DNA of 64,000 nt, from NCBI GenBank assembly GCA_951406725.2, contig OX597833.1:55924001-55988000 (forward strand). The letters are read 5' to 3'. Source of the DNA: Octopus vulgaris. Its lineage: Eukaryota. The notes beneath the pieces are model-generated. The model saw nothing but the letters and a program-made list of their open reading frames with translations. It was not told the DNA's origin and searched no databases. This document shows, piece by piece, positions 6,772-61,051 of this stretch (position 1 is the stretch's first letter; each line of letters starts with the position of its first letter). Both the position numbers and the translations under genes were made by a program.

Positions 6772-6902
6772 GTGCTCTCAAAATACGATACCAGTGCCGA
6801 ACAAGAGGTTCGGGATTGGGTTAAACAGCTGGTGGATGAGGATATTGGAGGCGGCCCATATGAAGTCGAAAAACAGCTTAAAAGTGGCGTTACCCTCGTC
6901 AA
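6772..6902 (+). CDS. Calponin/transgelin-family gene, shared CH-domain exon A (internal exon, not in the ORF track)
   Basis: Acceptor tttcag|, donor aa|gtaagt. Manual translation VLSKYDTSAEQEVRDWVKQLVDEDIGGGPYEVEKQLKSGVTLV(K) matches the KYD..E...W and LK.G..L.K motifs at the start of calponin-type CH domains. 131 nt, ends in phase 2. Confidence 0.92.
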
Positions 6903-8410
6903 GTAAGTAATATTAATTTTCAGTCATCAACATACACTACACGTGCACTCATGAGTGGTCTGACCGCGCCATGCTGGGGCATCCCTTTCAATGGTTTGTC
7001 GAACAAATTTACTCTCTTTCACTCTTTTATTCTTTTACTTGTTTCACTCACAAGGCTTTGGTCGGCCCGAGGCTATAGTAAAAGACACTTGCCTAAGGTG
7101 CCACGCAGTGGGACTGAACTCGGAACCATGTGGTCGGTAAGCAAGCTACTTACCACACAGCCACTCCTGCACCTATGGTACTTATTTATTTATTTTTTCT
7201 GTAAGTCTCGGTACTCATTCTATTGGTTTCTTAGGCCGAACCGGTGAGTTACGGGGACATGAACATACCAACACCGGTTGTAAAGAGGTAATAAGGTGAA
7301 CAAACAAGATCACAAAGATACTTGCGCGGGCGCATGCATATATATGTGGGTGTGTTACAATCTTCTACACAGTCATCGTCTACCAAATTCACAAGGCCCT
7401 TGTGAAGGCACTTGCCCAAGGTGCTGCACAGTGGAACTGAACCTGAAATCATAGTTGCGTGGTTAAGAACCACACAACCATATATTTCTTTACTGCCCAC
7501 AAGGGGCTAAACATAGAGGGGACAAACAAGGACAGACATAGGTATTAAGTCAATTACATCGACCCCAGTGCGTAACTGGTACTTAATTTATCAACCCCGA
7601 AAGGATGAAAGGCAAAGTCGACCTCGGTGGAATTTGAACTGAGAACGTAACAGCAGACGAAATACCGCTAAGCATTTCGCCCGGCGTGCTAACGGTTCTG
7701 CCAGCTCGCTGCCTGAACCACACAACCATACCTGTACCAATAAGCGGTGCCGGTGCATAAACGCACACACGCGCGCGCGAACGGACACACGCACGCACGC
7801 ACACACACACACATACACACGCACGCACACACACACACACACACACACACACACACACACACACACACCACACTCACTTGAATTCTCCGTGTGTAAAACA
7901 AGGGCCTCCTAACGAAACGTTAAAACGTGATATAATCAAGATGACCTTAGAAGAGAAGCCATCGGTAGACAACTCGCTTGGATATTTACTACTTCCGAGG
8001 ATCCGCTCGCTATGAAACGTATGCAGCCAGGACTTCTTTCTACTACATTCCTTTACTCTTGAATGTGTGTGCGTGCGTGCGTGTGTGCATGTGTGTGTGC
8101 GTGTGTGTGTGCGTGTATGTGTGTGTGTGTGTGTGTGTGTGTGTGTGTGTGTGTGTGTGTGTGTGTGTGTGTGTGTGTGTGTGTGTGTGTGTGTGTGATC
8201 ATTCTTATACTACCAAGTAGAATATGCTCGCTGATAAGGTCCAATAATACTGAAATATGTTTGTTGCTTCCACCAGATGGCTTTAATAACAAGATCCACT
8301 CCAGCTCTGGGTGGATTTCTGTCAGTTTATATAGTACATACTACATGCATATATATATATATATATATATATATATATATATATATATATAGAAGGAGCT
8401 TCTACAGGAC

Positions 8411-8478
8411 TGGAACTGTTTCATTCAAGAGAAATCTTCAAGATTTCCTGAAGATTTCTCTTGAATGAAACAGTTCCA
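8411..8478. repeat. 30-bp perfect inverted repeat with an 8-nt spacer
   Basis: tggaactgtttcattcaagagaaatcttca-agatttcc-tgaagatttctcttgaatgaaacagttcca. Confidence 0.92.
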
Positions 8479-8969
8479 AGTAAACTCCTTCTATATAATA
8501 AATTAATTTTACTCTGCTATGTATTGAGTACCTTATTTACTGTGGTTAACCCCGAATCAACCCGGGACCTACATATATATATATATATATATATATATAT
8601 ATATATATATATATATAAAAGACTTGTCCTATTTCTATTCCTGAGCGCCATACTAATATATTTGTTTGTTTGTACTCCACCTGCCTTCGTCTTTTGTTTA
8701 TTTTCGTAAACTTTCCCGTTATATATATATATATATATATATATATATATATATATATATATATATATATATATTAGAAATTAGAAATAAAACCACTATT
8801 ATTCAACTCAAACAGTGATAGACATAAACTATAACATAAATAAGAAATATATATTTTTATAAAACATATAACTAGATCTCAAAAAGTATAAAAATGAATG
8901 ATCAATATATATTGATCATTCATTTAATTATGACCCTAGTATCGATCTATTGCATTTCAATCTATTTTC

Positions 8970-9027
8970 GGGTTAGGGTTAGAGTTAGGGTTAGTTAGGG
9001 TTACTTAGGGTTAGTTAGGGTTAGGGG
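8970..9027 (+). repeat. Degenerate interstitial (TTAGGG)n tract
   Basis: gggttagggttagagttagggttagttagggttacttagggttagttagggttagggg. Confidence 0.8.
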
Positions 9028-9600
9028 TGGGAGGAAGGGTATCTTTTTTTCTTCACAAATGTAAATAAACCCAATCTGTTTCTTAAACGAGGGACATTTT
9101 CATATGGCACAGAATGTTTTCACCTCAATAGACGTCATTGATTGTTTGAAACTGCAGAAATTGAAGAAAAAAAAACAACAAATATCTTACAAACTATAGA
9201 ATTTTCTCAATAAAGCCAAGAGACAAAGATGTTTTATAAACACATTCTACCAGTATACGAAGTTTAAAAGTGTTTAGTCACGTGGAAATTATTTTTAAAA
9301 AACTGCCGTTCAAACCGAAAAGATCCGTACTCTGTTTCGGAAGGATTTTCGTCCTAAATTTGCCTCGTTACGGTTGAGCTGAATTTTCGCTATAACATCG
9401 TCGCGCGTTTGGACTTAACTCACTTAGCTAACGTTAGCAGAAGGGAAGTAACTCTAACATGACTATCGATAAAGTTATATAGAATTCCCTTTCTTGACAT
9501 ATTTTTTTTTCATTAACTCTCAGGGACTTTTCTTTTCTTTACGAGTGTAATGTTAATTGCGTGACCTTTTTGTCTATTTTATTTTATATTCCTTTGCTTA

Positions 9601-59359: not shown

Positions 59360-59672
59360 ACGGTACAGCTCCCATGACTTTCAGATACGTTTTTTCACGC
59401 TAAGAGTTGCTGAAGCATGGAACAAACTGCCGACATCAGTTGTTAGTTGTCAGAGCACTGCATCCTTCAAAACTTCCATGCTTCCAGAGATTCGCCAACA
59501 CTACACCTGATTTTCTCCCCTCCATACACACGCAAGCATGTATCTGACTCATATACTGTTCACTTTCAAGACATTTGTATATTACTGCATATGCTTTATA
59601 CACACTTTTGACAAGTTGTGGTGCACCTGAGCACTGTATACAATAATTTCATTATTATTATTATTATTATTA
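59360..59672 (+). mobile_element. CR1/L2-group LINE 3' fragment
   Basis: RFFTLRVAEAWNKLPTSVVSCQSTASFK matches the FF..RV...WN.LP..VV......FK C-terminal motif; ends in an (ATT)n tail. Confidence 0.78.
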
Positions 59673-60406
59673 AACTTCTGAAGTTCATAAAATAAATTGC
59701 TATCATAGTCTGCATTCATTATACTTGGTAACTCCTGAAACTAGTAAAAAGATAAAATGTTCGAAATCTGTAAAATCTCTCTGCAATAATTCATCTAAAA
59801 ATATAGACATCAAAACTAAAATTGTTCATTTAAATTTTCTATTTATAATGAAATAAAATGATTATCACTGTCGTAAAATTAATGTCATACATTTCCAATA
59901 TCTGCAAGAATTGTCTGGTCATTGGGAAATATTACCTTGCTTGAAAACAGATGAAGGGCATCCAGCCATAGAAAATCTGCCTCAGTTGATTACATCTGAC
60001 CCATGCAAGCATGGAAAAGTAGACATCAAAATAATGTTGGTGATGATTTAGCATTTAATGGCTTATATCTTTAGCTGAAATATATCTATTTTGATAGCAA
60101 TGACAAGACTTGTAAAACTTGTAAAAATAATTAAAAATTTCACATACTTTAGCTGTGTTGCCATTTTCAAACAACAGAATTTAGGAAAATAAAAATAAGA
60201 AATAAGTGGAAATTTTACCGGTGAGTGTGTTACATTAACACACAAAGAAAATGACTCTCCCCAGACACAACAAAACAACTGAATATTATACTTTATATCA
60301 AAAGTTAAAAGAATCACCCTTCAAAATACCCAGCAGTAAACTAGTCAAATAACAGACACAATACAATATGACTATAAAAAACATCTCAGTTCAGATATGA
60401 TATTAA

Positions 60407-60627
60407 CCCTTTCGTTACCAACCCGGTTGAAACCGGCTCTGGCTCTTTAGTATAAATATTTTGTTTTCATAAGTTTTGAATTCAAATCTTCCACCAAATC
60501 TTAATCACAATTTATGTTCCAAACACTAGCGCAATGATAACGATGTTATTTTACTAAATTCTTTGTTATACTTAAAATAATTGGAAGAAACACAGAGCAT
60601 CTCAAAATAAATACGGTAACGAAAGGG
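60407..60627. mobile_element. piggyBac-type MITE, 221 bp
   Basis: Perfect 13-bp TIR ccctttcgttacc / ggtaacgaaaggg, with TTAA on both sides (60403-60406 and 60628-60631). Confidence 0.88.
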
Positions 60628-60748
60628 TTAATGTAGAATGTTAGGAGGAACCTAAAGTTACATTCTGCTTATCAATGTTGAATCATCAATTTCTAATGAA
60701 CACTTTATATTTGTTGTGTTAACATATCCTCCTTGTTGTCTATCCCAG

Positions 60749-61051
60749 GCGCAAAGGCACAATTTCAACGGCCCACAATGTGGTCCGAAGCCTCATGAAT
60801 CTCGTGAACTTAATTTCGATCCTGAAGTAATGCGTGCTGGTGAAGGAATCATTGGACTTCAGGCAGGAAGCAACAAATTTGCAACACAGAAAGGAATGGT
60901 GATGGGTGGTGTCCGCCACGTAAATGACATCAAATCTGAAGAAGTCTCAGAAAAAGGCAAGTACACCATCAATCTCCAGTATGGCTTCAACCACGGAGCA
61001 AACCAAGCAGGAATGAACTTTGGAAAGAAAAGATCCATTGTAGACATATAA
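60749..61051 (+). CDS. Alternative terminal exon T6: linker + 2 calponin repeats
   Basis: Same acceptor (|GCG), phase 0. 2 repeats, ends RSIVDI*. 303 nt, open frame. Confidence 0.88.
   Translation, partial: AQRHNFNGPQCGPKPHESRELNFDPEVMRAGEGIIGLQAGSNKFATQKGMVMGGVRHVNDIKSEEVSEKGKYTINLQYGFNHGANQAGMNFGKKRSIVDI

Follow-up and report, generated by a model that had tools for sequence, protein, structure and literature searches.

How one octopus gene could supply actin-binding proteins with anything from two to seven calponin (CLIK) repeats is the question raised by a locus of Octopus vulgaris, in which exons coding for a CH domain are followed by six related terminal exons, T1 to T6. The stretch analysed, hereafter the window, is 64,000 nucleotides (nt) long (assembly GCA_951406725.2, contig OX597833.1, 55,924,001-55,988,000, forward strand). 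A first-pass annotation had read it as alternative last exons on a constant CH head. We consider it very probable that the whole is best explained as one calponin gene with alternative last exons encoding thin-filament proteins, a view upheld by anatomy, by selection, by homologous records and by the proteome of a congener, while the splice junctions themselves are inferred.

One CH-coding head and six terminal exons

The three CH exons of the window (Table 1) have AG/GT ends and form 124 open codons with LQLGTE as their C-terminus; their positions and the phase-0 donor at 12063 were borne out to the base. A further coding exon, about 36.3 kb 5' of the window and followed by a first intron of 43 kb, adds 17 codons, so that the constant head comprises 141 amino acids (aa). 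The earlier figure of 124 shared codons thus holds for the exons of the window but falls short of the full head. The window exons are letter-for-letter equal to the head of P0066, a record named Octopus vulgaris which may rest on this same genome and was not taken as independent, and in which Pfam recognised the CH domain (PF00307, 62.9 bits for a cut-off of 26). The first-pass claim that a second set of CH exons is absent was supported by tblastn and blastn, which found no second CH exon in the window, and by a profile made from 139 homologous heads, which over 154 kb (50 kb upstream, the window and 40 kb downstream) found neither a second CH set nor a seventh tail exon beyond the known three CH and six tail exons. 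In the whole genome, CH exon 4 as a query gave four matches, the three others lying on other contigs at 45-53% identity. The constant exons are single-copy and stand upstream of all tails, as in an array with a variable 3' part. Elsewhere (G000:C1:191409393-191411695) another gene with a CH exon-4 match has a linker/CLIK exon match 2 kb downstream and is probably a transgelin/myophilin with the same pre-tail intron. Three bivalve records (P0026, P0043 and P0056) carry an optional insert of 17-28 aa between exons 1 and 2, a counterpart of which could be contained in the long first intron here.

All six tail exons have a phase-0 acceptor, start with AQR and are open to their own stop. Pfam PF00402 detected 7, 4, 6, 5, 3 and 2 stretches in T1 to T6, each exon scoring above the cut-off; the repeats of T2-T6 are always spaced by 39 aa, and the lengths of T5, T2, T4 and T3 rise by exact 117-nt steps. 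Every tail start, length, step and repeat count given at first pass was confirmed (by Pfam for the counts), as was the 713-nt gap between T3 and T4, which holds a T2-like untranslated region (UTR) and microsatellites, besides the putative SINE named at first pass. The tail exons become distinguishable early in their sequence: T1 and T6 at exon base 3, T2 at base 20, T5 from T3/T4 at base 37 and T3 from T4 at base 42. With the head attached, T1 to T6 predict proteins of 438, 318, 396, 357, 279 and 241 aa, and those of 438, 318 and 279 aa match public octopus entries in length. The distance from the donor is 6.2 kb for T1 and 34-49 kb for T2-T6. A whole-genome search with T6 returned 21 matches, 20 inside the six exons and one weak match on another contig. 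The chance that each count occurs once is 1.5% under uniform counts, a post hoc figure. Six homologous open exons under purifying selection (see below) are not due to chance.

Table 1. Exons of the calponin locus (positions in the window unless stated otherwise)
Feature	Position	Strand	Description
Constant exon 1	L014:3743-3793, outside window		17 codons, ATG to GTAAGC donor
Constant exon 2	6772..6902	+	131 nt, CH domain start, phase 0 to phase 2
Constant exon 3	10050..10152	+	103 nt, CH domain middle, phase 2 to phase 0
Constant exon 4	11926..12063	+	138 nt, CH domain end; phase-0 donor GAG|GTAAGT common to all tails
T1 last exon	18278..19171	+	894 nt, 297 aa, 7 calponin repeats; ancestral-type, most abundant
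T2 last exon	46154..46687	+	534 nt, 177 aa, 4 repeats
T3 last exon	49309..50076	+	768 nt, 255 aa, 6 repeats; apparently a recent T2-family copy
T4 last exon	50790..51440	+	651 nt, 216 aa, 5 repeats; T5-like tract in repeat 1
T5 last exon	55022..55438	+	417 nt, 138 aa, 3 repeats
T6 last exon	60749..61051	+	303 nt, 100 aa, 2 repeats

Molluscan records, selection and translated tails

The same breakpoint recurs in other molluscs, a comparison that gives the junctions their strongest backing. The junction motif is present in 139 of the 171 homologous proteins fetched, and when heads were grouped at 97% identity or more over 95 aa, 12 of the 15 shared-head groups had two or three different tails, all starting at AQR; the groups are not independent, the oyster being counted twice and Mytilus three times. 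The named cases with several tails are Pinctada, Crenomytilus (calponin 1/2), Mytilus coruscus (calponin-like 1/2), Mizuhopecten, the oyster and O. bimaculoides, in which CH+T1 and CH+T2 stand under one gene id. Tails differ in repeat number within a species: 7, 5 and 3 by Pfam in the oyster (the third being 4 by motif count), 5 and 4 in Crenomytilus, 7 and 5 in Mizuhopecten. In this thin sample, a flatworm pair sharing a head has one tail type, and no gastropod pair was found. Full-length calponin cDNAs have been reported for Mizuhopecten, Crenomytilus and Pinctada. From these records, the setting of repeat number by tail choice appears to be a molluscan trait and not an octopus invention. 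The first-pass suggestion that such an architecture had not been described therefore had to be given up, since bivalve isoforms already diverge at the same residue and the Pinctada entries BBL87042 and BBL87043 are named 'calponin splicing isoform 1/2'.

Purifying selection is evident in the tails. The ratio of replacement to synonymous substitution rates (dN/dS) is 0.15-0.30 in all 11 tail pairs, of 15, with unsaturated dS, and Fisher tests gave p from 3e-7 to 6e-3 in the five pairs tested for selection, including the youngest, T3-T4 (7 synonymous vs 5 replacement changes, p 0.006). The T2, T5 and T6 proteins are identical to those of O. sinensis at 175/177, 138/138 and 100/100 aa, and to those of O. 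bimaculoides at 171/177, 127/138 and 92/100 aa. As to splice signals, the acceptors have a pyrimidine fraction of 0.68-0.84, those of T2-T6 are free of AG from -40 to -3, and a branch-like word (TTAAC/TTAAT) precedes all six. An AATAAA word lies 250-340 nt past the stop in T1-T5. On the minus strand, no match to the shared acceptor motif was found in 154 kb. Docking/selector pairing of the PGRP-LC type was sought in a narrow test, which looked only for perfect complementarity within the opening 600 nt of the intron, with G-U pairs excluded and in the DNA of this species only: the longest complements were of 7-8 nt, the chance level, for five of the six tails, and the 10-nt match of T3, a CA/TG microsatellite, was equalled in 6 of 200 shuffles.

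Tail types are translated in a congener. In the arm-tip proteome of O. berrima, searched cross-species against cephalopod UniProt (PMC10337964), the 438-aa T1 form was represented by 8461 peptide-spectrum matches (PSMs) and 10 unique peptides, the CH+T2 form of 318 aa, which shares its gene id, by 1321 PSMs and 4 unique peptides, a 236-aa CLIK-only entry by 663 and 7, and the O. sinensis T5+T6 model (P0005) by 468 and 3; all four entries recur in a second table of that study. The 236-aa entry was assigned to T5+T6 from length, Pfam and neighbouring gene id only. Taken together, the distal entries reach about 1% of the abundance of the T1 form, a rough value with shared peptides credited to the larger entry. 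These rows prove tail-type translation, not the head-tail junction. Among the rows listed in supplements on O. vulgaris (PMC10138644/PMC10142993), skin mucus gave no INLQYG or KPHESR match, and ink gave only the 438-aa T1 form, with 1 PSM. PMC7460285 describes a seven-repeat O. bimaculoides calponin and homologues with more than 10 predicted transcripts; the gene id given there differs from that of the proteome table. Its sucker-peptide supplement held only AGTNK, common to most tails. This antimicrobial pentapeptide from octopus suckers (PMC7460285) sits in the repeats of T1-T5 and is therefore not assignable to the seven-repeat form alone.

From a mechanistic point of view, the donor at 12063 would join the four constant exons (141 aa, CH domain) to a single member of the set of six duplicated last exons. 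Every tail would bring a linker, CLIK repeats, a stop and a 3' UTR of its own, with one tail per mRNA. T1, as the nearest, would be the default, transcription ending there whenever the T1 acceptor and poly(A) site are chosen; T2-T6 would be reached upon skipping of T1, presumably in the smaller share of transcripts or cell types. The layout would be old, a phase-0 intron between CH domain and CLIK tail having allowed duplication of the whole tail exon, just as it did in bivalves; a single distal exon would then have multiplied to five in octopods, with whole repeats gained or lost through unequal crossing-over between 117-nt units, plus gene conversion between copies. The resulting proteins would bind thin filaments via their CLIK repeats and restrain both actomyosin ATPase and the turnover of filaments, the more strongly the more repeats they carry. 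Earlier work reported that the binding and stabilisation of actin correlate with the number of CLIK repeats and that actin is bound by CLIK motifs, not by the CH domain (bioRxiv 2020.04.29.069104), and F-actin binding and inhibition of actomyosin ATPase have been reported for mussel calponin. Graded thin-filament binding by tissue is therefore a plausible and fair hypothesis, not a result, and we advance only tentatively the claim that repeat count is the selected property. Bolder still, and in our view rather unlikely, is the idea that last-exon choice in octopods acts as a dial on actin-binding valency, the muscles of arm, sucker, mantle and skin each picking two to seven repeats for thin-filament stability or tone, and the array still growing stepwise through unequal crossing-over, with selection favouring new counts.

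Several observations weigh against the proposed gene with alternative last exons. For the junctions from 12063 to T2-T6 in this species, no spanning read or cDNA was seen; the full-length octopus records are gene models, P0066 possibly built on this same genome; and the proteome rows come without peptide letters, so that they contain no junction peptide and do not distinguish T2 from T3/T4 or T5 from T6. T2 and T5+T6 are annotated as CH-less genes in O. sinensis, and among the fetched proteins T3 and T4 have no model in O. sinensis or O. bimaculoides, for which annotation gaps or collapsed assemblies could be the reason. AATAAA words are weak evidence in DNA that is AT-rich and partly (TAA)n, and T6 has its first at +1329. 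Finally, two seven-repeat nematode proteins differ in bundling (bioRxiv 2020.04.29.069104), and count alone therefore does not fix activity.

Origin of the repeat series and competing explanations

A tree of the tails, based on 72 columns only, places T2-T6, the copies of congeners and an Argonauta tail in one long-branch clade (100/99), apart from T1. As to a common ancestor of this octopod distal clade and the bivalve distal tails, the tree is ambiguous (90/72), the alternative not being rejected (p 0.15 in the approximately unbiased test, p-AU). An independent origin of the octopod distal clade, our first reading of the tree, was dropped after the topology test left the ancestry undecided. 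Neither squid nor cuttlefish yielded a distal tail among the matches listed (120 of 367 in one search, 39 of 39 in another). In O. bimaculoides, a 903-aa model strings together T1, T2, T5 and T6 (7, 4, 3 and 2 repeats), in that order and with no T3 or T4; models of O. sinensis cover T2, T5 and T6. The Argonauta model has a five-unit tail whose unit order is that of T4, from which a five-unit tail may be old. The complete two-to-seven ladder noted at first pass is thus real in this genome, but its conservation as a set is uncertain, only 7, 4, 3 and 2 being found in the O. bimaculoides model.

Within the array, the last internal units of T2, T3 and T4 differ at 1-3 of 117 nt, their front parts are more diverged, and their UTRs are 97-99% identical (193/195, 193/197 and 191/197). 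Repeat 1 of T4 (window 50790-51005) has a run of 8 T5-like informative sites in a T2-like exon, likely a gene-conversion tract, and T3 and T4 look like recent unequal-crossover copies. The similar tail ends and UTRs, the diverged fronts and the T5-like tract form a pattern of unequal crossing-over plus conversion among 117-nt units. Unequal crossing-over by such units keeps the frame and shifts the repeat count in whole steps.

These observations bear directly on the explanation that survives best beside a selected count, which is compatible with the architecture proposed above: the gene structure would be the same and the ladder a by-product of unequal crossing-over by whole units, with selection holding every tail in frame, what matters being tail sequence, UTR or tissue and not count. 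We judge it evenly balanced. The partial series of O. bimaculoides, the five units of Argonauta, the closeness of T2, T3 and T4 in last units and UTRs, the T5-like run in T4 and the 5.6% chance (post hoc) of T3 and T4 filling both count gaps all suit a by-product, whereas the retention of 7, 4, 3 and 2 between O. bimaculoides and this genome, the varying counts of bivalve tails (7/5/3, 5/4, 7/5) and the unit order shared by T4 and the Argonauta tail argue for more than that.

It is improbable that T3 and T4 are assembly artefacts, that is, stacked haplotypes of T2 in a gene with four real tails. The three near-identical UTRs and the missing models in both congeners would fit, but three versions with 4, 6 and 5 units exceed two alleles, dS is 0.08-0.15 and dN/dS about 0.2 among T2, T3 and T4, the shared sequence spans some 0.7-0.8 kb per copy with no long flanks, and the T3 and T4 acceptors are nearer to that of T5 (38-39/40) than to that of T2 (32/37-38). 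T3 and T4 may also be real yet polymorphic, as a copy-number variant.

Still less credit can be given to the view that T2-T6 are genes in their own right, UNC-87-like and lacking a CH domain, each with a promoter or first exon of its own. They are so modelled in O. sinensis and in the older O. bimaculoides annotation (P0005, P0006, P0123, P0124), but the N-termini of those models are unrelated, 7-29 aa long and different between species. Likewise, an in-frame ATG stands 14 codons 5' of the acceptor in T4 and T5, but T2, T3 and T6 have none upstream, nor has T1; every tail starts at the conserved AQR breakpoint behind a clean acceptor, and orthologous bivalve tails are found joined to the CH head. 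Least credible of all is a joining of tails in series through cryptic donors before their stops, giving proteins of 5 to 27 repeats, for although database models of this form exist (P0122, with 903 aa and 16 repeats; P0121, T5+T6; P0132, from Mytilus) and a GT lies a few bases 5' of the stop in T5 and T6, several of these models translate intron letters, the T5 acceptor included, GT is missing from the final 21 nt of T2-T4, bivalve records stop after one tail, and a search for long homologues, itself weak, gave 18 matches, mostly nematode UNC-87-like and with no named mollusc protein.

A few other elements lie in the window. Positions 33594-34583 on the minus strand hold three overlapping broken frames, in which Pfam found no family at E 0.01 and whose motif we take to be that of a Tc1/mariner transposase remnant. 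A minisatellite of about 24 nt occurs twice (25839-26298 and 32542-33077), each time after a similar lead sequence. Within the introns of the CH part, 10250-11620 is a stretch of 15-21% GC without a clear repeat unit, after a microsatellite, which may be noisy consensus, and 8970-9030 contains a brief run of TTAGGG-like units.

Significance and comparison with known systems

In the literature searched, mostly as titles and abstract starts and with subscription journals largely missing, no description of a six-exon tail array or of a two-to-seven series in a cephalopod was found, and PMC10285543 presents the repeat numbers of invertebrates as varying from protein to protein and from species to species. 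The splicing layout itself being already recorded, what is new is the growth of the array in octopods to six tails, more than in any other of the calponin records fetched; the ladder may have been completed only recently or locally. The calponin literature treats it as an open question whether CLIK repeats are additive modules or differ in kind (bioRxiv 2020.04.29.069104). The locus offers six natural proteins with an identical head and two to seven repeats, four of them differing by near-identical whole units, and additivity could therefore be tested without engineered constructs. It also suggests that thin filaments in cephalopod muscle may be regulated at a further, so far unexamined level. 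In practical terms, predictors fuse the tails into long proteins or split them off as CH-less genes (P0122, P0121, P0005, P0132), and calponin expression counts in octopus are therefore likely mis-assigned. Molluscan CLIK proteins of up to 23 repeats are quoted in PMC10285543, and we conjecture that some of the very long ones reported are such concatenations.

Among known systems, the bivalve calponin isoforms come closest, with a single CH head, a tail switch at GTE|AQR and tails differing in repeat number; T1 is similar to the bivalve seven-repeat tail (moderate support). Bivalve groups show two or three tail types in our sample, whereas the octopus gene has six. Vertebrate calponins (3 CLIK repeats) and transgelins (1 CLIK repeat) likewise combine one CH domain with C-terminal CLIK repeats, but their repeat number is fixed per gene, while in octopus it would be varied by last-exon choice in one gene. 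Nematodes have a comparable range of repeat numbers in the muscles of one animal (7, 7, 6 and 5 in UNC-87 and CLIK-1/2/3), distributed, unlike here, over four separate CH-less genes, with UNC-87 isoforms varying 5' (bioRxiv 2020.04.29.069104). The octopus tails also differ from the UNC-87 type in that T1, T2, T3 and T6 show no in-frame ATG upstream, an ATG being present for T4 and T5; first exons farther upstream are conceivable.

Clustered protocadherins combine constant exons with an array of variable exons in one locus, the variable part being 5' and chosen by promoter. By contrast, the variable exons of the octopus array are 3', begin with splice acceptors and would be chosen by splicing and polyadenylation. 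The first-pass comparison with a mirror image of protocadherins does not make this a new kind of locus, since arrays with a constant 5' and a variable 3' part are known. Indeed, PGRP-LC, CG42235 and Pip represent an established insect class of tandem 3' cassettes, lola also being cited, in which cassette choice is tied to 3'-end formation (PMC6191721). As proposed for octopus, constant 5' exons are joined there to one of several tandem duplicated 3' cassettes. The insect genes use docking/selector pairing, of which our narrow test gave no signal in octopus, and their cassettes vary recognition or catalytic domains, whereas the octopus tails vary the number of repeats.

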